64,000 nucleotides of DNA, taken from an uncultured Desulfobacterales bacterium. Its GTDB lineage: Bacteria > Desulfobacterota > Desulfobacteria > Desulfobacterales > B30-G6. Location: assembly GCA_964435695.1 (NCBI GenBank), contig CAYTAQ010000001.1, positions 4,580 to 68,579 on the forward strand. Direction: 5' to 3'. Positions 9,641 to 50,993 of this stretch are shown here, in pieces. The first letter of the stretch is position 1, and every line of letters begins with the position of its first letter. The position numbers were made by a program, and so were the translations under genes. The notes under the pieces were generated by a model that saw only the letters and a program-made list of their open reading frames with translations, made no database searches and was not told the DNA's origin.

Positions 9641-9816
9641 AGGGTTCCAGGAGTCGAGGGTCCCAGGGTTCGAGTGAAAAAACAAAAAAACAATCATCAA
9701 AACACAAAATTATTCAATTTCTTTTTCGCCCTTTCGTGATAAATGGGTTCTTCACATCCCATCTATCACATGGTTATTCCTCACTTGAACCCTCGAATCC
9801 TTGAACCCTTGGATCC
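9641..9816. repeat. nested-hairpin element, family A, full copy (between hslV and hslU)
   Basis: Outer arms are AGGGTTCCAGGAGTCGAGGGTCCCAGGGTTCGAGTGAAAA and CTCACTTGAACCCTCGAATCCTTGAACCCTTGGATCC. The interior holds A-rich and ATCATCAAAACACAAA sequence, then TTTCTTTTTCG..CCTTTCGTGATAAATGGGTTCTTCACA..ATCTATCACA. Confidence 0.85.
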
Positions 9817-22582: not shown

Positions 22583-24346
22583 ATGAAAATACTTCTGATC
22601 TACCCCTATTTTCTGGATGAGCGGATTCATACATATGACATCAGCGTGCCCCCCATCGGCCTGTATTATGTAGGGGCCGTCCTCAAGGAAAACGGTTATG
22701 ACGTGGACATACTTAACTGGCATGCGATCCATTCATCACCCAAAATAATCAAAGAAACCCTGATCCGAATAAACCCGGATGTAATCGGATTCTCCATTTT
22801 ACATGCCAACCGATTTGGGGGAATCGAAATCGCCGGCATTGCCAAAGCACTGAACCCTGAGGTGAAAATCGTTTTCGGCGGCGTTGGCGCGACGTTTTTA
22901 TGGCGTCATTTTTTAACCCATTTTAACGCCATCGATTACATTGTGCTGGGGGAAGGAGAATACACTTTTTTAGCGCTTGTCAGATGCTTTGAGAAAAAAG
23001 ACGATACCGCCATAAAAAACATCAACGGGATTGCGTTCCGACAGCAAACCGGCCCGTATCAGACAAAACCGGCTGATGTCGTTCAGAATCTGGACCAACT
23101 TCCCATACCGGCAACGTATTTTCAGTATCAGCATGTTTCCTTTACCAGGGGATGCCCCGGGAACTGTACGTTTTGTGGTTCACCCCAGTTCTGGGGGCAT
23201 CGGGTCAGGACGCATTCACCGATCTATTTCGTCGATCAACTGGAATGCCTTTATCACAAAGGTATTCAGTCCTTTTATTTCTCAGACGATACGTTTACAT
23301 TCAAAAAAAAACATGTCCTGGCCATCTGCAAAGAAATCATTGCAAGAGGGCTGAATATCACCTGGGTTGCCATTTCCCGGGTGAACACGGTTGATGATGA
23401 GATCCTTGGATGGATGCGAAAAGCCGGATGTACACAAATCAGCTACGGTATTGAGAGCGGCTCGGAAAAGATCCGGCGCAAATTCAACAAGCGCATTCAA
23501 ACCGAACAGATAAAAAAAGCATTCGACAGCACCCGATCCTACGGCATTTTACCTCGGGCTTATTTCATATACGGAGCCCCCGGCGAATCCCGGGAAACGA
23601 TACAAGAAACCATCCGGCTGATCCATAATATCAAGCCATTGGGTGCGATTTTTTATATACTTGATATTTTTCCAGGAACGAAACTGTATGAGGACTTTAA
23701 GAAAAAGGAAAAGCTTTCAGATGACATATGGTTGAATCGGGTGGAAGATATTATGTATTTTGAGTCGGATCCCGCGCTCTCCAAAGAAGCAATCCTGGAA
23801 TTCGGAAGCCTATTAAGAAGCGATTTTCATAAAAGATTACCTGGATTCATTGAGGATATCGAACTGATTAGCGATAAAACATTTGATCGGTTTCATGCGG
23901 ATTTTTATTCGCGAATGGGGATGACCTTCACCCATGGAGATTATGCAAAAATAGATGCAATTGCGGAAAAAGAGATGATTGCGGAAAAACTTTTTCTAAA
24001 ATCCCTTTCCTATTTTCCCGATATTCGTGCATATCTGGGGCTTGGTATTCTTTATCAAAAACAAAGATCTTTTCAAAAATCCATGGAAATCATTGCCCAG
24101 GGGCTCTCACATTTCTCCGAAGGAATGGATTTGCGTATTTGTCAGGCTATTAATCATATGAATTTGAAAAATTTTGACGCCGCTCTGTCGATTTTTCTCG
24201 AGTATCAAACACTGCCGCATGTGATTTCCTATATCATTGAATGCTACAGGCAAATTGGGGATTTTGAGAACGCGAAAACATTTAGCGATAAAAAAGGATT
24301 CCAGGAGCCAAGAATCCAAGGAGTCGAGTTAAAAACCAAAAAATAA
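22583..24346 (+). CDS. B12-binding-domain radical SAM protein with C-terminal TPR-like region
   Basis: The N-terminal cobalamin-binding-type domain is followed by FTRGCPGNCTFC (CxxxCxxC). The last ~17 codons are derived from a repeat element. Confidence 0.85.
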   Translation: MKILLIYPYFLDERIHTYDISVPPIGLYYVGAVLKENGYDVDILNWHAIHSSPKIIKETLIRINPDVIGFSILHANRFGGIEIAGIAKALNPEVKIVFGGVGATFLWRHFLTHFNAIDYIVLGEGEYTFLALVRCFEKKDDTAIKNINGIAFRQQTGPYQTKPADVVQNLDQLPIPATYFQYQHVSFTRGCPGNCTFCGSPQFWGHRVRTHSPIYFVDQLECLYHKGIQSFYFSDDTFTFKKKHVLAICKEIIARGLNITWVAISRVNTVDDEILGWMRKAGCTQISYGIESGSEKIRRKFNKRIQTEQIKKAFDSTRSYGILPRAYFIYGAPGESRETIQETIRLIHNIKPLGAIFYILDIFPGTKLYEDFKKKEKLSDDIWLNRVEDIMYFESDPALSKEAILEFGSLLRSDFHKRLPGFIEDIELISDKTFDRFHADFYSRMGMTFTHGDYAKIDAIAEKEMIAEKLFLKSLSYFPDIRAYLGLGILYQKQRSFQKSMEIIAQGLSHFSEGMDLRICQAINHMNLKNFDAALSIFLEYQTLPHVISYIIECYRQIGDFENAKTFSDKKGFQEPRIQGVELKTKK

Positions 24347-39808: not shown

Positions 39809-40942
39809 ATGGAACATCTGCTACCATGGTTTGTTTTGAAAAGTATTCCGGGGATCGGCAATCTGCTTTACAAACGTCTTATCGACCGATTTCATTCCCC
39901 GAGCAATGCGTTTGAAGCTTCGTACAACGAGCTCGTAAAAACCGACGGCTTGACAGGTCGCCTGGCTGAAGCGATAAAGACCCACCGTACCCCGGATACG
40001 GTTCAGAATGAGCTGGATCTGGTAGTGAAAAAAAAAGTCAGGATCGTAACGCTGAACGATCCGGATTATCCATCCCTCCTTCGAGAAATAGCGGATCCCC
40101 CTCCCTACTTGTATGTTTATGGCACCCTGGAAGGCAAATCCAACAGGATTGCAATGGTCGGGTCACGAAACGCAACCGATTACGGGTTGACCACAACCAA
40201 ACGTCTGAGTCGGGATTTAGCCGCCATGGGCATTACCATTGTCAGCGGTATGGCCAAAGGCATCGACGCGGCTGCTCACGAAGGAGCACTTATGGCTAAA
40301 GGGAATACCATCGCTGTTCTGGGATCCGGGCTTGGAAGGATTTATCCGGCAGAAAATGAAAAGCTTTACCATCGAATTGTTAAGATCGGTGCGGTCATTT
40401 CTGAATTACCGTTTTATGCTGAACCGGAAGCACACCACTTCCCCATGAGAAACCGTATCATCAGCGGGGTATCGCTGGGAACCGTCATTGTCGAGGCGAC
40501 CTTGCGGAGTGGCTCCCTTATCACGGCCCGTCTCGCGGCGGAACAAAACAGAGAGGTGTTCGCTGTTCCGGGAAGCATCCATTCATTCAAGAGTACCGGA
40601 ACGCATACATTGATCAAGCAGGGCGCAAAACTTGTAGAACACCCCCAAGATATTTTAGAAGAATTGCACTTGCACACAGATAGCTTAGCCAATAAAAATG
40701 AACCGGTCGTGGAAAAAATGAAAAGGCCTCCAGCAATGTCATCCGCTGAACGGCATGTGCTGGATTCGCTTGATCACTACCCTGTTCACATCGATGATAT
40801 CGCCCGCAAACTCGGCCTGGAAACCGGCGCGGTACTAGGCATACTGCTTCAACTCGAATTGCAGGGAAGCATAAAGCAATCGTCCGGCAAATTTTTTTCA
40901 TTAAATCCAAACTGGACTAGTAAGAGAGGAAACATTGAGTAA
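39809..40942 (+). CDS. dprA: DNA-processing protein DprA (Smf)
   Basis: DPDYPSLL, VGSRNATDYG, SGMAKGIDAAAH and GSLITARLAAEQNREVFAVPG are present, together with a C-terminal wHTH. Confidence 0.9.
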   Translation: MEHLLPWFVLKSIPGIGNLLYKRLIDRFHSPSNAFEASYNELVKTDGLTGRLAEAIKTHRTPDTVQNELDLVVKKKVRIVTLNDPDYPSLLREIADPPPYLYVYGTLEGKSNRIAMVGSRNATDYGLTTTKRLSRDLAAMGITIVSGMAKGIDAAAHEGALMAKGNTIAVLGSGLGRIYPAENEKLYHRIVKIGAVISELPFYAEPEAHHFPMRNRIISGVSLGTVIVEATLRSGSLITARLAAEQNREVFAVPGSIHSFKSTGTHTLIKQGAKLVEHPQDILEELHLHTDSLANKNEPVVEKMKRPPAMSSAERHVLDSLDHYPVHIDDIARKLGLETGAVLGILLQLELQGSIKQSSGKFFSLNPNWTSKRGNIE

Positions 40943-43214
40943 AAAACCCCTTGTGGTCGTAGAGTCGCCAACAAAAGTTAAAACCATAAAAAAATATCTG
41001 GGCAATGCCTACAACGTTGCGGCCACCGTCGGGCACATAAAAGATCTTCCGGCAAAAGAAATTGGAATCGATATCAAAAATGGTTTTAAACCCAATTATC
41101 GCATTATTCCAGGCAAGAAAAAAGTAATCGCCTCGCTGAAAAAAGCCGCCGGCGATGCTGAAGTAATATTTCTGGCACCGGACCCTGACCGCGAAGGAGA
41201 AGCCATTGCATGGCATGCAGCCGAAGTTTTAAAGATGAAAGATCGACAATTCTACAGGGTTTTATTCCACGAATTAACGAAAAATGGCATTAACGAGGCC
41301 ATAAAAAATCCCGAAGAACTGAACAAGCATAAATATGAAGCCCAGAAAGCAAGACGCATGCTCGACCGGTTGGTGGGATACCAGGTCTCTCCCATTTTAT
41401 GGCGCAAAGTAAAAGGCGGGTTAAGCGCCGGAAGAGTACAATCGGTGGCGGTCCGCATTATTTGCGAAAGAGAAAGGCAAATTCAGGCATTTGAATCCCA
41501 GGAGTATTGGTCTATCACGGCGCATCTTGAAGGGCGTATGCCGCCGCCCTTTAGTGCAAAACTTGCCAAAAAGCATCAGAAAAAAATTAACATTGCAAAT
41601 GAGCAAGCAGCGTTGACGATTTTAGAAGAATTACAGCATGCTGAATTTATCGTCGACAACATTACAAAAAAAACCACAAAAAGAAACCCGCTGCCCCCCT
41701 TTATCACCAGCAAACTCCAACAGGAATCGATTCAAAAACTCAGATTCTCGGCCAAAAAGACCATGATATTGGCACAGCAGCTATATGAAGGTATTGAACT
41801 TGAAGCCGGAGAACCCGTCGGGCTCATCACCTATATGCGAACCGATTCCACCCGCATATCAAAAGAGGCGGCTGAAGAAGCCGGTCTGTTGATACAAGAG
41901 CGCTTCGGACCCGCATATGGTTTAAAAAAACCCCGGTTTTTCAAAAACACAAAAAAGGTCCAAGATGCGCATGAAGCAATCCGCCCCACTTCCGTATTCA
42001 ATACCCCCGAGAAAGTAAAGCCCTTTTTGTCCAATGAGCAGTTATCACTCTACCGCCTCATCTGGAACCGGTTTGTCGCAAGCCAGATGAAAGAAGCTCT
42101 CATCGATACAGATTCCATCACCATAAAAGCCGGAGCCTACACATTTGCCACTGCGGGATCTACCATCAAATTTCCAGGGTTCATGGCGCTCTATATGTCC
42201 GTTGATGATGAACTCGCCAGTGAAAGTGAAAAGAAAAAGGGTGATCTGCCGGAGCTCACTGAGGGAATGATTTTACAACTGAATAAGCTGGATCCCAAAC
42301 AGCATTTTACCCTTCCGCCGCCAAGATTTTCAGAGGCCTCCCTTGTGAAGGAACTCGAAGAAAACGGTATCGGCCGTCCCAGCACCTATGCCTCTATCCT
42401 GTCAACCATTCGCGATAAAAAATATGTTGATCTGGTTAAAAAATATTTCAGGCCGAGTGAACTTGGATTTATTGTGAATGATTTGCTGGTGGAAAGCTTT
42501 AAGCATGTATTCAATGTCGATTTCACCGCGCGCATGGAAGATCTTCTGGATCGTATTGAAATGGATGAAATGCAGTCTGAAGACATTCTGAGCCGGTTTT
42601 ACGACCAATTCAAAAAAGAACTCGATATTGCATCGGAGAAAATGCCGAGCATAAAAGGCGTGGGATTTCCATCCGGTCGCACCTGCCCGGAATGTCATAA
42701 AGAACTTCGTATTAAAATGGGCAAGAACGGGCATTTTCTGGCCTGCAGCGGGTATCCGCAATGCACCTATTCCAGTGACTACACCCGCGATGAAAAAGGC
42801 AACATTCAAGCTGTCGAATTGGCCAAAGAAGTCATATCCGACAAGTTATGTGATAAATGCGGCAAACCCATGGTGGTTAAACAGGGACGTTACGGAAAAT
42901 TTCTTGCCTGCAGCGGATATCCCGCATGTAAAAATACCTACTCCGTCAATTCTGTAGAGCCGGGAATGGACACAGGCGTCGCTTGCCCGGAAAAAAATTG
43001 TCATGGCAAGCTGATCCAGAAGCAATCTAAACGCGGGAAAATATTCTATGGCTGCAATCGTTTTCCGGAATGTACCTATGCTATCTGGGATAAGCCGGTA
43101 AATAAAGAATGTCCTGTCTGCAACGCTCGTTTTCTGGTTGAAAAGTCCACAAAAAAGAAAGGGATCTTTTTCGCTTGTCTCACACAGGGGTGTGGGTATA
43201 CGACGACTGAATGA
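40935..43214 (+). CDS. topA: DNA topoisomerase I
   Basis: The Toprim N-terminus is VVVESPTKVKTIKKYLG, with YMRTDS at the active-site Tyr region and four C-terminal C4 zinc ribbons. The TTG start overlaps the dprA end by 8 nt. Confidence 0.95.
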   Translation: MSKKPLVVVESPTKVKTIKKYLGNAYNVAATVGHIKDLPAKEIGIDIKNGFKPNYRIIPGKKKVIASLKKAAGDAEVIFLAPDPDREGEAIAWHAAEVLKMKDRQFYRVLFHELTKNGINEAIKNPEELNKHKYEAQKARRMLDRLVGYQVSPILWRKVKGGLSAGRVQSVAVRIICERERQIQAFESQEYWSITAHLEGRMPPPFSAKLAKKHQKKINIANEQAALTILEELQHAEFIVDNITKKTTKRNPLPPFITSKLQQESIQKLRFSAKKTMILAQQLYEGIELEAGEPVGLITYMRTDSTRISKEAAEEAGLLIQERFGPAYGLKKPRFFKNTKKVQDAHEAIRPTSVFNTPEKVKPFLSNEQLSLYRLIWNRFVASQMKEALIDTDSITIKAGAYTFATAGSTIKFPGFMALYMSVDDELASESEKKKGDLPELTEGMILQLNKLDPKQHFTLPPPRFSEASLVKELEENGIGRPSTYASILSTIRDKKYVDLVKKYFRPSELGFIVNDLLVESFKHVFNVDFTARMEDLLDRIEMDEMQSEDILSRFYDQFKKELDIASEKMPSIKGVGFPSGRTCPECHKELRIKMGKNGHFLACSGYPQCTYSSDYTRDEKGNIQAVELAKEVISDKLCDKCGKPMVVKQGRYGKFLACSGYPACKNTYSVNSVEPGMDTGVACPEKNCHGKLIQKQSKRGKIFYGCNRFPECTYAIWDKPVNKECPVCNARFLVEKSTKKKGIFFACLTQGCGYTTTE

Positions 43215-43219
43215 TAAAC

Positions 43220-43482
43220 CAGAGAAGTCAGAAGACGGAACTCATAAATCAGAAGCCAGGAAACAGAAGACAGAACATCCAACATCCAACGCTTAACTCT
43301 CAACGTCCAAGAATGAAGTCGCTTCGCTCCACCATTTTATATCTTTGTATGCCACATGGAAGATCATAAATATAAAATCGATGGCATCCAATCTTGAAAG
43401 TCGAACGTTCGATGTTGGACATTGGACGTTTATCGATTCAGCGCCATATTCAGTATTCTGTCTCCTGTATTCTGTATTCTTG
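43220..43482. repeat. ~260-bp compound palindrome right after topA (CAGAAGAC, ATCCAAC and TATTCTGT words)
   Basis: The left side CAGAAGACGGAA..CAGAAGCCAGGAAACAGAAGACAGAACATCCAACATCCAACG faces the right side GAACGTTCGATGTTGGACATTGGACG...CAGTATTCTGTCTCCTGTATTCTGTATTCTTG. An inner hairpin is CCACCATTTTATAT / ATATAAAATCGATGG. Confidence 0.8.
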
Positions 43483-43563
43483 CCGGCCCTTTTCACTGCA
43501 TAGTCAACTGCATCTGATATAGCCCAAAGAATCAGGTTTTATTTGTTGAACAAATATTTGTGC

Positions 43564-43593
43564 TTGACATTCATGAAATCCCCTGTCATTAAT
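43564..43593 (+). promoter_or_regulatory. candidate sigma70 promoter of the ilv leader
   Basis: TTGACA (43564-43569) is followed by a 17-18-nt spacer and then CATTAA/ATTAAT (43587-43593). Confidence 0.4.
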
Positions 43594-43618
43594 GCTAAAA
43601 TTATTAAAAAAAGCAACT

Positions 43619-43711
43619 ATGGAAATGATTAAAACCAATAACACCCTAATTCTCGGCATTATTATCCTCGTCGTCGGCATACTTAGCCGCGTCGAGGTTC
43701 AGGGTTGTTAA
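43619..43711 (+). CDS. branched-chain amino acid leader peptide (30 codons)
   Basis: My translation is MEMIKTNNTLILGIIILVVGILSRVEVQGC-stop. Of the 30 codons, 14 are Ile, Leu or Val. A terminator follows and ilvB lies downstream. Confidence 0.7.
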   Translation: MEMIKTNNTLILGIIILVVGILSRVEVQGC

Positions 43712-43742
43712 TGGCTTAAATCTAACTTAATCAAACAAAAAA

Positions 43743-43778
43743 CCGTTACCAGCCCTGAGCCGGTAACGGTTTTTTTTT
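43743..43778 (+). terminator. intrinsic terminator (attenuator) between the leader ORF and ilvB
   Basis: CCGTTACC (43743-50) pairs with GGTAACGG (43762-69), with 2 further inner base pairs and a 5-nt loop. Nine T residues follow (43770-78). Confidence 0.8.
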
Positions 43779-43822
43779 GGGGGTAATTATCGTAACGGCT
43801 ATTTGGCTAAAGTCGATATTAT

Positions 43823-43903
43823 GAGGGACCAAGGGTTCACGGGAGAAAATAATACAGATCATTGTATACACTCGAATCCTTGACCCCTCGAACCCTAGAA
43901 TCC
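43823..43903. repeat. family A outer-arm-only element upstream of ilvB
   Basis: GAGGGACCAAGGGTTCACGGGAGAAAA ... CACTCGAATCCTTGACCCCTCGAACCCTAGAATCC. Confidence 0.75.
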
Positions 43904-43995
43904 TTCTGGATAAAAACTCAAGCTGCAGTTTTCATTTAGAGGCGGGTGAGTTTTCCCCATTCAACAAATACGGACATTATGAGAGAGGTTTTTAC

Positions 43996-45681
43996 ATGAA
44001 ACTGACAGGTGCTCAAATTTTAATGAAAGTGCTGCAGGAAGAAGGCGTGGATACCGTTTTTGGGTTTCCCGGCGGTGTCGTCATCGACATCTTTGACGAA
44101 ATGGCACGTACCGATATTAAACATATTCTTGTCCGTCATGAGCAAGGTGCGGTCCATGCAGCAGACGGCTATGCCCGTGCCGGCAAAAAAGTCGGTGTTT
44201 GCATCGTCACCTCAGGCCCCGGCGCCACCAATACCGTCACCGGTATCGCGTCCGCGTATATGGACTCGATCCCGCTTGTCGTCATCACCGGTCAGGTATC
44301 CACACACCTCATCGGAAACGATGCCTTTCAAGAAGTCGATATCGTAGGGATAACACGCTCCTGCACCAAGCACAACTTCCTGGTCACACGTACGGAAGAT
44401 CTCCAACGAGTCCTTAAGGAAGCCTTTTATCTGGCCCGGTCAGGCAGACCGGGCCCGGTATTGGTGGATATTCCAAAAGATGTGAGCATCACCCGTATTA
44501 ACTACAAACCGCTGAACTCTGTTCGGATTCAATCATACAACCCCACTTACAAGCCGAATATGAAACAACTTAAAAAAGTTGCCGGTCTGATAAAAACATC
44601 TAAAAAGCCGGTCATTTTTGCAGGCGGCGGCATCATCCTTTCTCAAGCCGCCGAAGCCCTGGCTGAATTTGCACGCAAAGCAAATATCCCGGTGACTGCA
44701 TCGCTCATGGGACTTGGAGGATTCCCGGGTTCAGATCCTCTTTGGCTGGGCATGATCGGCATGCACGGCACGTACCGGGCCAATATGGCCGTCAGCAATT
44801 GCGATCTTCTCATCGGCATCGGCGTCCGGTTCGATGATCGCGTTACCGGAAAAACGGATGTCTTTGCCAAACAGGCAAAAATCGTACATATCGACATCGA
44901 TCCCGCATCCATCCGGAAAAACGTCCCGGTAAGCATCCCTGTTGTCAGTGATTGTCAACAAGCACTCAAAGAATTGAACAAGCTCCTGGATGCGGCGGAT
45001 CTAACTGACATCCTCAGAGAACGCTTGCCATGGATTGAACAAATAGAAGAATGGAAAAGCACAAAGCCGCTGGAATACCGGCAAACCGACATCATTAAGC
45101 CACAGTTTGTCATAGAAAGGCTGTTTGAACTCACAAAAGGAGATGCCATCATCACCACGGAAGTCGGTCAAAATCAGATGTGGTCGGCCCAGTATTACCA
45201 CTTTGAAAAACCCAATCATTTTATCACCTCGGGCGGGTTGGGTTGTATGGGTTTTGGACTGCCGGCAGCCATTGGCGCGCAGGTTGCCAGGCCGGACAAA
45301 CTTGTCGTGGATATTGCCGGAGACGGAAGCATCCAGATGAATATTCAAGAAATGGCTACAGCCGTTCAATACCGTCTACCGATCAAAATCGTTATTCTGA
45401 ACAACGGCTATCTCGGCATGGTAAGGCAATGGCAACAGCTTTTTTATGACGGGCGCTATGCCGCCACGTGTATGGATTGTGCGCCTGATTTCGTCAAATT
45501 GGCGGAAGCCTTTGGTGCGGTGGGCCTCAGGGCCCAAAAACCGGAAGACGTTGAACCGGTTCTCACCGAAGGATTGGCTTTGCCTGAACCGGTCATTATG
45601 GATTTTGCCGTCGAAAAAGAAGAGTGCGTGTATCCCATGGTACCGGCCGGTGCGCCCATTACGGAAATGCTCTTGGCATAA
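43996..45681 (+). CDS. ilvB: acetolactate synthase, large subunit
   Basis: 561 aa ThDP enzyme with MKLTGAQILMKVLQEEGVDTVFGFPGG and GGLGCMGFGLPAAIGA...GDGS..MNIQE. Confidence 0.95.
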   Translation: MKLTGAQILMKVLQEEGVDTVFGFPGGVVIDIFDEMARTDIKHILVRHEQGAVHAADGYARAGKKVGVCIVTSGPGATNTVTGIASAYMDSIPLVVITGQVSTHLIGNDAFQEVDIVGITRSCTKHNFLVTRTEDLQRVLKEAFYLARSGRPGPVLVDIPKDVSITRINYKPLNSVRIQSYNPTYKPNMKQLKKVAGLIKTSKKPVIFAGGGIILSQAAEALAEFARKANIPVTASLMGLGGFPGSDPLWLGMIGMHGTYRANMAVSNCDLLIGIGVRFDDRVTGKTDVFAKQAKIVHIDIDPASIRKNVPVSIPVVSDCQQALKELNKLLDAADLTDILRERLPWIEQIEEWKSTKPLEYRQTDIIKPQFVIERLFELTKGDAIITTEVGQNQMWSAQYYHFEKPNHFITSGGLGCMGFGLPAAIGAQVARPDKLVVDIAGDGSIQMNIQEMATAVQYRLPIKIVILNNGYLGMVRQWQQLFYDGRYAATCMDCAPDFVKLAEAFGAVGLRAQKPEDVEPVLTEGLALPEPVIMDFAVEKEECVYPMVPAGAPITEMLLA

Positions 45682-45693
45682 AAGGATGAACAT

Positions 45694-46182
45694 ATGGATG
45701 AAGAAAAGCATATTCTCACAATGATTGTTGACAATGAGCCCGGTGTGCTGTCGCGTGTCGTCGGCTTGTTCAGCGCCAGAGGGTATAACATTGAAAGCCT
45801 CTGTGTTGCGCCCACCATTGATCCCCAGGTATCCAGAATTACGCTCGTTACCAAGGCAAATCTGCCTGAACTCGAGCAAATTGAGAAGCAGTTGAGAAAA
45901 CTGATTAATGTCATTAAATTGAGGGATCTTTCAGGGAAAAATGCTGTCAGGCGTGAGATGGCTCTGGTTTGTGTAAAAGCAAAACCGGGACAGCGCGCAG
46001 AAATTTTAAGGATTGTCGATATTTTTCGCTGTAAGGTGGTTGATACAGGACTGGAACACTACATCATCGAAGTATCCGGCAATGAGGACAAGCTCAATGC
46101 ATTCATTAATCTTTTAAAACCCATGGGGATCAAGAAAATTGCACGGACAGGCGCCGTAGCACTTTTCAGAGAACCGAATTGA
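45694..46182 (+). CDS. ilvN: acetolactate synthase, small (regulatory) subunit
   Basis: 162 aa with an ACT domain N-terminus, HILTMIVDNEPGVLSRVVGLFSARGYNIESL. Confidence 0.93.
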   Translation: MDEEKHILTMIVDNEPGVLSRVVGLFSARGYNIESLCVAPTIDPQVSRITLVTKANLPELEQIEKQLRKLINVIKLRDLSGKNAVRREMALVCVKAKPGQRAEILRIVDIFRCKVVDTGLEHYIIEVSGNEDKLNAFINLLKPMGIKKIARTGAVALFREPN

Positions 46183-46202
46183 TAAAACAAAAGGAGAATT
46201 TC

Positions 46203-47249
46203 ATGGCGATCATTAATTTTGGTGGTGTCGAGGAAGAAGTCATTACATCGGAAGAATTCACATTGGAGAAAGCGAGAGAAGTGCTGGCAAAAGAAACCAT
46301 CGCCGTTCTTGGCTACGGTGTTCAGGGCCCCGGACAGGCGCTCAATATGCGCGATAACGGTCTTCAGGTCATTGTCGGTCAAAGACAAGGCGGTCAATCG
46401 TGGGATCGGGCAGTCGCCGACGGCTTTGTACCCGGCGAATCTCTTTTTCCCATTGAGGAAGCAGCGCAGAAGGCGACGCTGATTCAATTTCTCTTATCAG
46501 ATGCCGGTCAGGTTTCAACCTGGCCCATGGTAAAGAAAAGTCTCAATGAAGGCGACGCCCTGTATTTTTCACACGGCTTTTCAATTGCCTATAAAGATCA
46601 AACCAACATTGTCCCGCCACAAAATGTTGATGTGATTCTGGTTGCACCCAAAGGATCCGGCCGTAGCGTCCGCTCGAACTTCCTTGAAGGCAGCGGCATC
46701 AATTCGAGTTTTGCCGTTCATCAGGATTTTACCGGACGGGCAAAGGAAAGAGCCCTTGCGGCCGGTATTGCCATCGGGTCCGGTTATCTGTTTCCCACTA
46801 CATTTGAAAACGAAGTTTACAGCGATCTCACCGGTGAAAGGGGCGTTCTTATGGGCTGCCTTGCCGGTGTGATGGAAGCGCAATATCAGACCCTACGTAA
46901 AAACGGGCACAGCCCTAGCGAAGCCTTTAATGAAACCGTCGAAGAACTGACCCAGAGCCTCATTCGACTCGTTGCTGAAAACGGCATGGACTGGATGTTT
47001 TCCAACTGCAGCACCACCGCTCAAAGAGGTGCGCTCGATTGGGCACCCAAATTCCGGGATGCAGTACTGCCTGTTTTTGATAAATTATACGACAGCGTAA
47101 TTTCCGGCAAAGAGGTCAAACGTGTTTTGGATAAAAACAGCCAGCCCGACTACCGGGAAAAATTGCAGGAAGAGCTGAATGCCATCAAGAATTCAGAAAT
47201 GTGGCGAGCCGGTAAAGCGGTGAGGTCTCTGCGACCTGAAAATCGATAG
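46203..47249 (+). CDS. ilvC: ketol-acid reductoisomerase
   Basis: GYGVQGPGQALNMRDNG and SHGF are present. Start set at the ATG at 46203, which has an AAAGGAGA RBS. Confidence 0.93.
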   Translation: MAIINFGGVEEEVITSEEFTLEKAREVLAKETIAVLGYGVQGPGQALNMRDNGLQVIVGQRQGGQSWDRAVADGFVPGESLFPIEEAAQKATLIQFLLSDAGQVSTWPMVKKSLNEGDALYFSHGFSIAYKDQTNIVPPQNVDVILVAPKGSGRSVRSNFLEGSGINSSFAVHQDFTGRAKERALAAGIAIGSGYLFPTTFENEVYSDLTGERGVLMGCLAGVMEAQYQTLRKNGHSPSEAFNETVEELTQSLIRLVAENGMDWMFSNCSTTAQRGALDWAPKFRDAVLPVFDKLYDSVISGKEVKRVLDKNSQPDYREKLQEELNAIKNSEMWRAGKAVRSLRPENR

Positions 47250-47261
47250 CATAAATCAGGT

Positions 47262-47445
47262 AAGGATTCAAGGGGCCGAGGATTCAAGGATTCAAGTGAA
47301 AAAAACAGTCACCAAAACAAATAATATTGCCATTTCTTTTTCTTGTTTTTTGACCTTTCGTGTTTTGATGGCAAAGGAATTCATTAAATTCCGGCTATCA
47401 CAAACGCTTCACGTGGACCCTAGCCCCCTGGAATCCTTGAATCCT
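47262..47445. repeat. family A element, full copy (between ilvC and cimA)
   Basis: AAGGATTCAAGGGGCCGAGGATTCAAGGATTCAAGTGAAAAAAA ... ATTTCTTTTTC..CCTTTCGTGTTTTGATGG ... CTATCACA ... CTTCACGTGGACCCTAGCCCCCTGGAATCCTTGAATCC. Confidence 0.85.
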
Positions 47446-47468
47446 ATTATTAACAATGAGGTTATATC

Positions 47469-49088
47469 ATGAATGAACCGATCCTGCTGTATGACACAAC
47501 GTTACGCGATGGTACGCAAGGCGAAAACATCAATTTTTCTGCCGATGAAAAGATAAAGATTGCGGAACGTCTCGACGATATCGGTGTTCATTACATTGAA
47601 GGCGGATGGCCGGGCTCAAATCCTAAAGACATTCAATTTTTTGATCTGGCCAGGCGAATTAAATTCAAACAAACAAAAATAACCTCCTTTGGTGCAACCC
47701 GAAGACCGGGCATCGCGCCTGAGGATGATCCCAATTTGCATGCGCTGCTGGATAGCCATACCTCCGTTGTTACCATTTTCGGAAAAAGCTGGGATCTTCA
47801 TGTTGAGCGCATCATGAGCAATACCCTTGAAGAGAATATTAAAATGATCCGGGATTCCGTCGAATATCTCAAGGATCAAAAACGAGAAGTCATCTATGAT
47901 GCCGAGCATTTCTTTGACGGTTACAGGGATAACAAGGACTACGCGTGCCGGACATTGATACCTGCCGTCAAAGGCGGCGCTGAATTCATTGTTCTCTGCG
48001 ACACCAATGGCGGCACCCTTCCCCATGAAATTGAACAGATTATTCAGGAAGTTTCCAGGTGGCTGGAAAAGGAATTGGTTCATGCACCCGCTGATCTGAA
48101 AATCAAGCTGGGTATTCATGCCCACAACGATTGTGGGATGGCTGTGGCCAACTCCATAACCGCTGTGCGTTCAGGTATTTCAATGGTACAGGGAACCATC
48201 AACGGCTATGGTGAACGCTGCGGCAATGCCGATCTTACGACTATTATTCCGGTCATCAACACCAAGTTAAAGGGTATGTGCATCCCTCATGAGAACTTGG
48301 CCCAATTAAGATCATAGTCCAGGTTTGTCAGCGAAACAGCCAATCTTGTTCCCTTAAACTCCCGTCCATTCGTCGGCAAAAGCGCCTTCACCCACAAAGG
48401 AGGTGTTCATGTCAATGCCGTCATGAAACTCCCCGGTGCCTACGAACATATGAATCCGGAAATTGTGGGAAACACCCGTCGGGTCCTGGTATCGGATCTT
48501 TCCGGCAAAAGCAATATCGAGTACAAGGCAGAGGAATTCGGTGTAAAGCTGGACGGAAACGGCCATGACAGTCAGCAAATCGTTACCAAAATCAAAGAAT
48601 TGGAACAGGATGGATATCAATTCGATGTGGCGGACGGATCCTTTAAGATTCTGGCGGAAAAATTGACGGATCAGTTTAAACCTTTATTTGAGCTTGAATC
48701 CTTTAGGGTCACTATCGAAAAGGACAAGGATCAACCCTGCACAGCCCATGCAACCGTTAAAATCCGTGTAGATAATCGAAACGAAATAACGGCGGCAGAA
48801 GGATATGGCCCGGTCAGCGCGCTGGACAATGCCCTTCGCAAGGCGCTCGATAAATTTTATCCGGATCTTGATACCATGCGACTAGTGGATTTTAAAGTTC
48901 GTGTCATTGACGGCCGTGCAGGAACAGCGGCAAAGGTCAGGGTTCTCATCGAATCCCGCGATCAGGATCAGATCTGGAGCACCATCGGTGTGTCCGAAGA
49001 CATCATTGAAGCCAGTTGGCAGGCCCTGGCCGACAGTTTTCAATATAAGCTTGCCCACGAAAAAAAGATCAGGAGTACGGAAGAATGA
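47469..49088 (+). pseudogene. cimA: (R)-citramalate synthase-type (LeuA-family) gene interrupted by one in-frame TAG at 48315-48317
   Basis: ORFs 47469..48317 and 48423..49088 are in the same frame. Reading through the TAG gives ...[53 protein letters not shown]..., a continuous ~539-codon LeuA/CimA-family sequence (LYDTTLRDGTQ, HAHND, HKGG). Confidence 0.8.
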
Positions 49089-49239
49089 TTCAAACAGCTC
49101 GCTCAAAGGAAGGAACCAACGCCGCAGGACCCTCCCGGGGTATCCTGCGGCCTATGCTCGGTATTGTTTTATCCAGTAAGCATAGAATTCTTTAGTTGCT
49201 ATTAATTATGGATCATTACCAAATTAGTTGGTCCGAATT

Positions 49240-49393
49240 AAGGATTCGAGGGTTCGAGGGTTCGAGTGAAAAGCTTAAAAGTTACAAAGAATAAAAAGGG
49301 GAGATCGGAGTTGTCGAGAGAATGCTATAAGCGATGATCAAACCCCTGGAAAACAAACACTTGAATCCTGGGGTCCTGGACCCCTCGGACCCT
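49240..49393. repeat. family A outer arms with a different centre (between cimA and leuA)
   Basis: AAGGATTCGAGGGTTCGAGGGTTCGAGTGAAAAG ... CACTTGAATCCTGGGGTCCTGGACCCCTCGGACCC. Confidence 0.8.
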
Positions 49394-49454
49394 TTATCCC
49401 AATATGAATTGGGAGAAGAATGCTAATTATCAACAATTACATTGGAGAATAACA

Positions 49455-50993
49455 ATGCCTGACTATATAAAAATTTTTGATACCACCCTTAGAGACGGAG
49501 AGCAATCGCCGGGTGCAAGCATGAATGCCGGTGAAAAACTTCGTCTGGCAACACAATTGGAAAACCTGGGCGTCGATGTTCTGGAAGCCGGCTTTCCGGC
49601 GGCTTCTGATGGCGACTTTGAAGCTGTTTCCGCCATCGCTCAAAAACTCAAGCGAACGGAAGTCGCCGGCCTTGCAAGAACGTCAAAAGAAGATATCGAC
49701 CGCGCCTGGGGCGCTGTCCGGCATGCAGTCAAGCCTAAAATACACACGTTTATTGCAACATCCGACATTCACCTGGAATACAAGCTGAAAATGACCCGGG
49801 AGCAGGTCGTCCAGGCTGCTGTCGATGCTGTAAAATACGCCAAGTCTCTCACCGATAACGTAGAGTTTTCAGCTGAAGACGGTTCCCGCAGCGATCGTGA
49901 TTATCTCTGTAAGGTATTTGAAGCAGCCATTACGGCAGGCGCTGAAACGGTTAATCTGCCGGATACTGTCGGATATGCGGTTCCCCGGGAATTTGCCGAA
50001 CTGATACGATACGTCAAAGAGCATACACCCAACATCCACAAGGCAACGTTGAGCGTCCATTGCCACAATGATCTGGGATTGGCCACAGCCAACACCCTGT
50101 CCGCCATCGAAGCCGGTGCAAGACAAGTCGAGCTGACCATCAACGGTATCGGCGAAAGGGCCGGCAACACATCCATGGAAGAAGTGGTAATGGCCATCAA
50201 TACGCGGCCGGCCTATTACAATCTGAGCACCGGTATCAAAACCGATCTGATTTTCCCCACCAGCAGACTGGTAAGCATGATCACCGGTATTATCGTCCAG
50301 CCCAACAAAGCCATTGTCGGTGCCAATGCATTTGCTCATGAGGCCGGCATCCATCAGGATGGTGTGCTGAAAAACCGGATGACCTATGAAATCATGAGAC
50401 CGGAAACCATCGGCCTCAGTAGAAATAAACTCATACTCGGCAAGCATTCCGGCCGGCACGCACTTCGCGAACACTTGAAGGACCTGGGGTATGATCTCTC
50501 TGCCGATGAACTCAATACGATCTTCCAGCTGTTTAAAGAATTGGCGGATAAAAAGAAACATGTAGTCGATGAAGACCTGGAAGCGCTGGTTACCCAGGAA
50601 ATATTAAGAACCCAGGAGGTGTTCAAATTGGAATATCTCCATGTCACCAGCGGGACCACCGTCATGCCCATGGCAAGCGTCAAGCTCTCCATACATGGAA
50701 GATCTTTAAAGGGTGCCGGTTACGGCAACGGTCCCATTGATTCGGCATTCAATACCATCGCCAAACTTACCGGTACCGAATCCGAGTTGCTGAGATTTTC
50801 AGTGAGTGCCTTGACAGGCGGCACCGATGCACAAGGTGAAGTGACGGTCCGACTGGGTGAAAAGGGCCTGGTTGCACTGGGAAAGGGCTCTGACGCCGAC
50901 ATCATCATTGCCAGCGCCAAGGCCTATATCAACGGGTTGAACCGGCTGGAATATTTAAAAGAACATCCGGTGCAGGCGGCGCAGTCTTTCTAG
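49455..50993 (+). CDS. leuA: 2-isopropylmalate synthase
   Basis: MPDYIKIFDTTLRDGEQSPG, HCHNDLG and HEAGIHQDG are present, with a C-terminal LeuA dimer/regulatory domain. Start set at the ATG at 49455, which has a GGAGA RBS. Confidence 0.93.
   Translation: MPDYIKIFDTTLRDGEQSPGASMNAGEKLRLATQLENLGVDVLEAGFPAASDGDFEAVSAIAQKLKRTEVAGLARTSKEDIDRAWGAVRHAVKPKIHTFIATSDIHLEYKLKMTREQVVQAAVDAVKYAKSLTDNVEFSAEDGSRSDRDYLCKVFEAAITAGAETVNLPDTVGYAVPREFAELIRYVKEHTPNIHKATLSVHCHNDLGLATANTLSAIEAGARQVELTINGIGERAGNTSMEEVVMAINTRPAYYNLSTGIKTDLIFPTSRLVSMITGIIVQPNKAIVGANAFAHEAGIHQDGVLKNRMTYEIMRPETIGLSRNKLILGKHSGRHALREHLKDLGYDLSADELNTIFQLFKELADKKKHVVDEDLEALVTQEILRTQEVFKLEYLHVTSGTTVMPMASVKLSIHGRSLKGAGYGNGPIDSAFNTIAKLTGTESELLRFSVSALTGGTDAQGEVTVRLGEKGLVALGKGSDADIIIASAKAYINGLNRLEYLKEHPVQAAQSF

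Follow-up and report, generated by a model that had tools for sequence, protein, structure and literature searches.

The 64-kb stretch of DNA analysed here (64,000 nucleotides of contig CAYTAQ010000001.1, from an uncultured Desulfobacterales bacterium; hereafter the window) carries topA and, behind it, ilvB, ilvN, ilvC, cimA and leuA, and the spacer between topA and ilvB holds the leader element which is the subject of this study. An earlier interpretation made from the letters alone (the sequence-only reading) had proposed that this spacer encodes a short peptide rich in Ile, Leu and Val (ILV), followed by mutually exclusive terminator and antiterminator helices which would control the ilvBNC-cimA-leuA genes by attenuation. 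NCBIfam matches identified topA and ilvB as the flanking genes and agree with the operon content proposed. The guess of a deltaproteobacterial context also fits, as the nearest relatives of the window IlvB (no more than 78% identity) all come from Desulfobacterales or 'delta proteobacterium' metagenome-assembled genomes (MAGs). On the evidence of conservation, helix stability and covariation presented below, we consider it very probable that transcription of the ilvBNC-cimA-leuA operon is attenuated by a ribosome-mediated, leader-peptide mechanism responding to Ile, Leu and Val.

The leader between topA and ilvB

The leader open reading frame (ORF) comprises 30 codons and a TAA stop codon (Table 1), and direct reading agreed with the sequence-only reading both on its coordinates and on its 14 ILV codons (six Ile, four Leu and four Val), while the share of these lying in codons 10-22 came to 11 of 14 and not ten as previously counted. 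Upstream of the ORF we found a −35 box and an extended −10 element, whose counterparts in the family of related leaders (an alignment of 121 distinct sequences, picked only for the presence of an ILV-rich ORF) follow the consensus TTGACA-N15-TG-T-TAnnnn, 66 of 116 members having TG in front of their best −10 hexamer. Transcription from this putative promoter would begin near position 43600. Because it overlaps the −10 box, an upstream ATG in the same frame (43592) is probably untranscribed, so that the first start codon of the leader would be the one at 43619, or possibly the second in-frame ATG at 43625. The promoter and the upstream ATG had been overlooked in the sequence-only reading, as had a third long-range helix and a hairpin internal to the ORF, both of which are described below.

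The intrinsic terminator was present exactly where it had been predicted, with its two stem arms and nine T residues, and its hairpin alone, an 8-bp GC-rich stem together with its A/U extension, has a folding energy of −20.1 kcal/mol. The antiterminator likewise agreed in every detail, the 3' end of the ORF and the terminator's left arm and loop (43696-43714 and 43743-43761) forming 15 Watson-Crick pairs and three G.U pairs over 19 positions with a single U/C mismatch. As a hairpin it reaches −25.4 kcal/mol, and is thus by no means weaker than the terminator with which it competes. A match of 18 out of 19 was not reached by any of 5000 dinucleotide shuffles of the upstream 143 nt, the best of which gave 15, and the antiterminator site is the sole plus-strand site with at least 17 of 19 matches in the whole window, in which no further copy of the element was found.

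Folding of the leader RNA (43600-43790) gave a minimum free energy (MFE) of −56 kcal/mol with a z-score of −4.8. In this MFE fold the terminator is formed, the antiterminator is absent, and 43627-43647 is paired with 43701-43722 around the internal hairpin (43666-43697); enforcing the antiterminator costs 7.6 kcal/mol relative to it. Since a segment of the ORF, which we call region 1, thus pairs with the antiterminator strand, region 2, the latter is sequestered by default. The sequence-only reading had described the element as a minimal two-helix form. The conserved anti-antiterminator helix 1:2, recovered by the MFE fold as well as by RNAalifold, and the covarying hairpin nested within it replace that description, and in our model the element has the full classic architecture of helices 1:2, 2:3 and 3:4. 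It follows from the third helix that an untranslated leader should terminate (superattenuation) and not read through.

Table 1. Positions of the leader elements and neighbouring genes in the window
Feature	Position	Strand	Remarks
topA	40935-43214		NCBIfam match
−35 box	43564-43569	+	TTGACA by direct reading; 116 of 121 family members have TTGAC[AT] 167-213 nt before the terminator arm
Extended −10 (putative)	43584-43592	+	TG 43584-85, T, CATTAA 43587-92; 17 nt after the −35 box
Leader ORF	43619-43711	+	30 codons and TAA (43709-11); predicted product MEMIKTNNTLILGIIILVVGILSRVEVQGC; second in-frame ATG 43625
Region 1	43627-43648	+	5' strand of anti-antiterminator helix (P1); core CCAATAACACCC, resembling the terminator left arm; from MFE fold and RNAalifold
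Regulatory codon run	43646-43684	+	codons 10-22, LILGIIILVVGIL; 11 of 13 codons ILV
Internal hairpin	43666-43697	+	within the ORF; CCUCGUCGUCGGC...GCCGCGUCGAGG; covarying
Region 2 (switch strand)	43696-43722	+	43696-43714 pairs with region 3 (antiterminator); 43701-43722 pairs with region 1 (P1)
Region 2 conserved core	43702-43714	+	GGGTTGTTAATGG; holds the stop codon 43709-11
A-rich linker	43723-43742	+	ends in A-tract 43737-42, which can lengthen the terminator stem against the U-tract
Region 3	43743-43761	+	terminator left arm and loop, common to antiterminator and terminator
Intrinsic terminator	43743-43778	+	stem CCGTTACC (43743-50) with GGTAACGG (43762-69, region 4); 11-nt loop with two further pairs; U9 43770-78
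Terminator-ilvB spacer	43779-43995	+	217 nt, unusually long; one octamer-periodic palindromic repeat element (43825-43841 and 43871-43903)
ilvB Shine-Dalgarno	43983-43988	+	GAGAGG, inside the 217-nt spacer
Regulated operon	43996-50993	+	ilvB, ilvN, ilvC, cimA, leuA; NCBIfam matches
ilvB	43996-45681	+	NCBIfam
ilvN	45694-46182	+	NCBIfam
ilvC	46179-47249	+	ORF; NCBIfam
cimA	47469-49088	+	in-frame TAG at 48315-17
leuA	49404-50993	+	NCBIfam

Conservation and covariation among relatives

The window IlvB was used to scan one genome per GTDB species, which yielded 80 loci with 64-78% identity, all of them from Desulfobacterales, 'delta proteobacterium' or Thermodesulfobacteriota MAGs. A homologous element was found at 36 of these loci, directly before ilvB in 17 and at 1.73-1.99 kb upstream of it in 19 more; at 12 of the remaining loci the upstream sequence was truncated. 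Where metagenome loci show this wider spacing, leader and ilvB are separated by the gene for IlvD (dihydroxy-acid dehydratase). The metagenome loci were collected with a terminator-only pattern, CCGTTANCNGC-N(4-16)-GNTAACGGNTTTTTT, which requires neither an ILV-rich ORF nor a complementary segment and returned at least 120 loci. Nevertheless, 101 of the 120 loci listed had an ILV-rich ORF ending near the terminator and, with it, a segment whose complementarity to the terminator left arm extends to at least 10 of 13 positions. The gene behind the terminator was either ilvB itself, no more than 17-354 nt away in 46 loci, or ilvD followed by ilvB. Conservation of the ILV-rich ORF, which the sequence-only reading had put forward as a check, was thus borne out at 17 + 19 GTDB loci and about 100 metagenome loci.

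Members of the family so defined have an ILV-rich ORF behind a TTGACA promoter, then a GGGYUGRUAAUGG box, a linker rich in A (variable in both length and sequence) and a terminator CCGUUAYCAGCC...GRUAACGG-U(7-9), and are located upstream of ilvB or ilvD. The window leader has all of these and aligns over its full length with the 120 other members, its closest forms being those of L161, L177, L193 and L194, and also L046 (box GGGTTGTTAATGG or GGGTGGTTAATGG). Wherever it occurs in the genome loci, and in most of the metagenome loci, the element precedes ilvB or ilvD in the same orientation. Exceptions were seen among the metagenome loci: in L163 and L176 leader and terminator are followed by a 184-residue protein which is neither IlvD nor IlvB (the L163 copy has no NCBIfam match), in L170 the next gene after the leader is also a non-ilv gene, and a few metagenome copies stand before an HTH-cupin gene. 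These may reflect a regulon which extends beyond the ilv genes or may be rearranged loci. More divergent ILV- or Val-rich leader ORFs with other terminators were also seen, in L073 (about 128-287 nt before ilvB) and in L058 and L061, an example being ...GSIVVGVVVVIKGDR... followed by AGCCGCGGGCCCCCTTTGCCCGCGGCT; their sequences suggest that attenuation of ilvB in this lineage reaches beyond the present family.

The element keeps company with the ilv genes and not with topA, which precedes it at 12 of the 17 loci where ilvB comes directly after the leader and at few of the remaining ones. This bears on the view that the hairpin is merely a terminator, perhaps bidirectional, of topA, with the ORF and the complementarity arising by chance. 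The hairpin, placed between an A-tract and a T-tract, does score as a terminator on both strands, and the 12 neighbouring topA genes would be in keeping with such a role; but 529 nt, among them a conserved promoter, separate it from the topA stop codon, the element has been retained at loci lacking topA and at those with ilvD in place of ilvB behind it, and chance fails both in the shuffles described above and in the family pairing statistics given below. We regard this explanation as extremely improbable and as effectively refuted already by the comparative data.

Pairing was then scored column by column in the alignment. In the antiterminator (columns 196-208 with region 2) 93.4% of cells were paired, as against 21-59% when the partner was slid by 1-3 columns, and two-sided changes which preserve pairing were seen in 29 cells, compared with 10.3 in shuffles, none of 500 shuffles reaching 29. 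Four of its 13 pairs covary: at the seventh position 17 sequences have G-C in place of A-U, and the other three change from G-C to U-A, from G-C to A-U, and from U-A to C-G or G-U. In the terminator 93.6% were paired and six pairs showed two-sided changes. Compensatory changes in both helices, which had been suggested as a further check, were therefore found. Helix 1:2 gave 14 column pairs, 80% paired, nine of them with two-sided changes. A first register tried for this helix, CTTATCAGCCTT with AAGGGTTGATAA, was only 81% paired with one-sided variation and was replaced by the RNAalifold register one turn upstream. For the internal hairpin RNAalifold on the MAFFT columns gave nothing, the arms being misaligned; when per-sequence folds and consensus column pairs were used, all 12 consensus pairs had two-sided changes, and in each of 18 genome-derived leaders the hairpin, built from differing sequences, had a stability of −17 to −25 kcal/mol. 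With ORF, terminator and antiterminator all conserved, and the antiterminator both stable and covarying, the comparison leaves the sequence-only proposal of mutually exclusive helices, with the stop codon in the antiterminator strand, standing and supported.

The leader peptides of the family consist of 47% ILV residues (I 21%, L 16% and V 10% over the 121 sequences) with very little Phe, Trp, Tyr or Ala, and the ILV codons are concentrated between −12 and +36 nt as counted from the 3' end of region 1. The stop codon occupies a few fixed places counted from the start of the region 2 core, +4 (TGA) in 42 leaders, +7 (TAA) in 32, the group to which the window leader belongs, and +15 in 43 (117 of 121 in all), and it always lies inside the region 2 strand or at most 5 nt past it, so that a terminating ribosome would cover region 2. 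The region 2 core (consensus GGGUUGAUAAUGG) is read in two frames, one of which ends inside it while the other gives Gly-Leu-Ile-Met-Ala before the stop at +15. The box is therefore conserved as RNA and not as peptide. Region 1 (consensus CCAUUAUCAACC, encoding ...AINNL...) is a near copy of the terminator left arm, and this accounts for the apparent conservation of amino acids there.

These observations speak against a view of the ORF as a gene in its own right, coding for a small and hydrophobic membrane peptide (type I toxin-like or accessory) and placed before ilvB incidentally. Such an idea would be suggested by the resemblance of the peptide to a single transmembrane helix and by its own conserved promoter and strong terminator. 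However, the C-terminal part of the peptide is unconserved, the same RNA box being read in two frames with different stop codons; its residues are nearly all I, L or V, and very little F, W, A or Y is used; and the element stands consistently on the same strand upstream of ilvB or ilvD. Moreover, in 27 metagenome loci merely 17-31 nt separate the terminator from the ilvB start, which leaves no space for another promoter, so that ilvB must be transcribed through the terminator and depends on read-through, and a membrane peptide gene would have no use for a region 2 that is complementary to the terminator arm. We therefore hold it very unlikely that the ORF is such a gene.

Ribosome position and the proposed mechanism

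A ribosome was modelled with its A site at each codon in turn, and only the RNA past its leading edge (A site + 12 nt) was folded. For the window leader the probability of the terminator was 0.999 when no ribosome was present. With the A site at codons 4-23 the antiterminator was favoured, with a probability of 0.60-0.996, and from codon 24 to the stop codon the terminator regained 0.89-0.999, being 0.999 at the stop codon itself. The ILV run of codons 10-22 thus falls wholly within the modelled antitermination window. Similar results were obtained for 115 leaders of the family when the RNA was made to end at region 3, the stage at which the switch would be decided: stalling at 87% of the ILV codons gave an antiterminator probability above 0.5, and a ribosome at the stop codon gave such a value in none of the 115.

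Combined together with the helices described above, these results are consistent with the following mechanism. Transcription from the TTGACA/extended −10 promoter would begin near 43600, and in the nascent RNA region 1 would pair with region 2 around the internal hairpin. A ribosome translating the 30-codon ORF would melt helix 1:2. When charged Ile, Leu or Val tRNAs are scarce, it would stall at codons 10-22, keeping regions 1 and 2 apart and leaving region 2 exposed to pair with region 3 as the latter emerges, which would pre-empt the terminator stem and allow read-through to ilvB. When Ile, Leu and Val are plentiful, the ribosome would reach the stop codon and mask region 2, region 3 would pair with region 4, and transcription would end at U9. 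In an untranslated leader region 2 would be held by region 1 and termination would be expected as well. The cell would in this way be predicted to raise expression of the operon on starvation for branched-chain amino acids.

Several findings weigh against the proposed attenuator. At full equilibrium the terminator wins in most relatives even when region 1 is masked, and only 6% of the ILV codons then give an antiterminator probability above 0.5 if the U-tail is included (39% if it is left out), while with RNA ending at region 3 and no ribosome at all the equilibrium model favours neither helix in the family, the median antiterminator probability being 0.52. As the terminator dominates at equilibrium, the switch in most relatives would have to be kinetic, the antiterminator forming first. 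The antiterminator of the window, longer than that of most relatives (19 positions) and, unlike theirs, also thermodynamically dominant, has a U/C mismatch which most of them do not have. Covariation of the antiterminator is modest, with four pairs of 13, because the boxes are highly conserved. Since the metagenome set was chosen on terminator sequence, conservation of the terminator there is partly by construction. No clear Shine-Dalgarno sequence precedes the window ORF, although several relatives have one (AAGGAG or GGAAG). Lastly, a consensus scan of the 217-nt spacer between terminator and ilvB found no promoter-like site, but the spacer might in principle hide a bypass promoter overlooked by so simple a scan.

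Kinetic pre-emption of this kind is likewise accepted for the trp attenuator of Escherichia coli. As an alternative, the same helices might be set by a sensor other than, or in addition to, the ribosome, such as a trans-acting protein, a small RNA or a ligand bound at the boxes GGGUUGAUAAUGG and CCGUUAUCAGCCC, the ORF being secondary. In favour of this, sequence conservation of the two boxes far exceeds what pairing by itself demands, the antiterminator is not dominant thermodynamically in most relatives, and ppGpp (guanosine tetraphosphate) riboswitches control some ilvB genes in other bacteria (PMC10272879). Box conservation is, however, explained by stacked constraints, region 2 having to match both region 1 and region 3, and region 3 both region 2 and region 4, and regions 1 and 2 coding for peptide in addition. 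The sequence of the internal hairpin varies freely, with no conserved loop or bulge of the sort which an aptamer would need, no Rfam riboswitch or protein-binding leader family matches the element, and neither the richness in ILV codons nor the fixed placement of the stop codon would be accounted for. A sensor of this kind is thus unlikely. That the two 13-nt boxes are near-invariant across the order Desulfobacterales leads to a related thought, in which the ribosome-mediated attenuator is retained and a protein, small RNA or small molecule acts as a second input at these boxes or at the P1 junction, making a dual-sensor switch; we consider this quite unlikely too, and prefer an attenuator governed by the ribosome alone.

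Known ilv leaders and the surroundings of the element

When all 4227 models of Rfam 15 were compared by cmscan, no leader family was matched at E ≤ 10 in 42500-45000 of the window or at E ≤ 1 in four relatives, which places the element outside every catalogued Rfam family; the leader and ilvB-associated families Leu_leader, His_leader, Thr_leader, Trp_leader, leu/phe leader and ilvB-OMG are presumably among the models scanned. A T-box or a metabolite riboswitch was also considered and rejected, there being no Rfam match, and the sole sizeable upstream structure being the hairpin of freely varying sequence. In the literature compared, which leaves aside the broad survey of Lopatovskaya et al. 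2010 that possibly covers this lineage, we found no description of an ilv attenuator for Deltaproteobacteria or Desulfobacterales, and Rodionov 2004, on delta-proteobacteria, makes no mention of one.

The attenuators of E. coli are established knowledge, and the present element resembles them in design. The leaders of ilvGMEDA (ilvL) and ilvBN (ivbL), and those of trp, leu, his and thr, likewise combine an ORF of cognate codons with helices 1:2, 2:3 and 3:4 and a terminator before the first gene (see also PMC1183508 and PMC10272879). In them an ample supply of amino acids and a lack of leader translation both lead to termination, as is predicted for the Desulfobacterales element, and the leader of ilvGMEDA is similarly multivalent for Ile, Leu and Val. 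On the other hand, there is no detectable sequence or covariance-model similarity between the two, and the Desulfobacterales belong to a different phylum-level lineage. The Desulfobacterales stop codon lies in or at the end of region 2, whereas in E. coli the ORF is followed by region 2. In the Desulfobacterales element, moreover, region 1 nearly duplicates the terminator left arm, and an extra covarying hairpin is nested in helix 1:2. The operons differ as well, being ilvBNC-cimA-leuA in the window and ilvD-ilvB... in relatives.

In Corynebacterium (Actinobacteria) the ilvBNC attenuator (ilvB-II motif) also stands before ilvBNC, with an upstream ORF (uORF) rich in branched-chain amino acids over the first hairpin, a terminator as the last and three alternative hairpins proposed (PMC10272879, PMC11857589). 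In C. glutamicum the ilvBNC leader is reported to be translated although it has no ribosome-binding site, as cited in PMC10272879 (ref. 16 therein), and the window leader with its lack of a clear Shine-Dalgarno sequence may be compared to it. Sequence family and lineage are unrelated, and the Corynebacterium element is backed by reporters and mutations, the Desulfobacterales one by sequence comparison and folding. The ilvB-OMG and Leptospira ilvB motifs of the Breaker laboratory are likewise located before ilvB and have in-frame start and stop codons and peptides rich in branched-chain amino acids; their function was deduced from comparative data, and they have been reinterpreted as uORF attenuators in a paper which argues that uORF attenuation is common for ilvB genes (PMC10272879). 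No Rfam match links them to our element, though inclusion of both motifs in the 4227 models was not established by name. Compared with them, the Desulfobacterales family is much larger, with more than 150 instances, and has an explicit antiterminator and anti-antiterminator with covariation.

The mechanism is thus a textbook one and changes no concept; what is new is an uncatalogued sequence family which is widespread in sulfate-reducing Desulfobacterales. To our knowledge almost no gene regulation has been studied in this order, whose sulfate-reducing members abound in marine and freshwater sediments, and the leader would provide a concrete model for the regulation of branched-chain amino acid biosynthesis there. 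An RNA and uORF family of this size, missing from Rfam, could improve annotation, since many such leaders would otherwise be taken for hypothetical small membrane proteins or orphan terminators. It also adds an unusually large example to the evidence that uORF attenuation is a common means of ilvB regulation across bacteria.

The genes downstream of the leader deserve some remarks. The ORFs beyond leuA are on the opposite strand. The gene cimA (citramalate synthase) contains one in-frame TAG, ...ENLAQLRS*SRFVSETANL..., beyond which the frame is unchanged, and both halves match TIGR00977; the TAG may stem from an error in sequencing, mark a nonsense mutation or pseudogene, or be a site of stop-codon read-through or recoding.

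Between terminator and ilvB, where most relatives have 17-135 nt, the 217 nt of the window are probably due to the palindromic element present there. Elements of this type were found in the intergenic regions at 9642-9816, 24296-24328, 43825-43903, 47264-47444 and 49234-49400 of the window, in each of which two to four copies of the octamer GGRTTCRA, arranged in tandem, stand opposite an inverted set at a distance of about 50-150 nt, with 23 matches observed against 2.15 expected. All three intergenic spacers of the ilv-cimA-leuA unit carry one such element each. They look like repetitive extragenic palindromic (REP) sequences or miniature inverted-repeat transposable elements (MITEs).

The same spacer has, at 43792-43805 and 29 nt downstream, an 85-86% copy, GTAACGGCTATTTG, of the terminator right arm and the start of its T-tract (43763-43775). 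The copy could pair with the same terminator left arm, and may be the remnant of a duplication or of the insertion which lengthened the spacer.

On the other side of the leader, between the end of topA and the promoter (43229-43480), there are two nested long inverted repeats, 43251-43275/43456-43480 and 43278-43303/43394-43419, whose arms of 25-26 nt are about 80% complementary and both of which contain short tandem repeats (CAGAAGACNGAAC and GTATTCTGT). They may represent a second type of palindromic intergenic element or the terminator region of topA.

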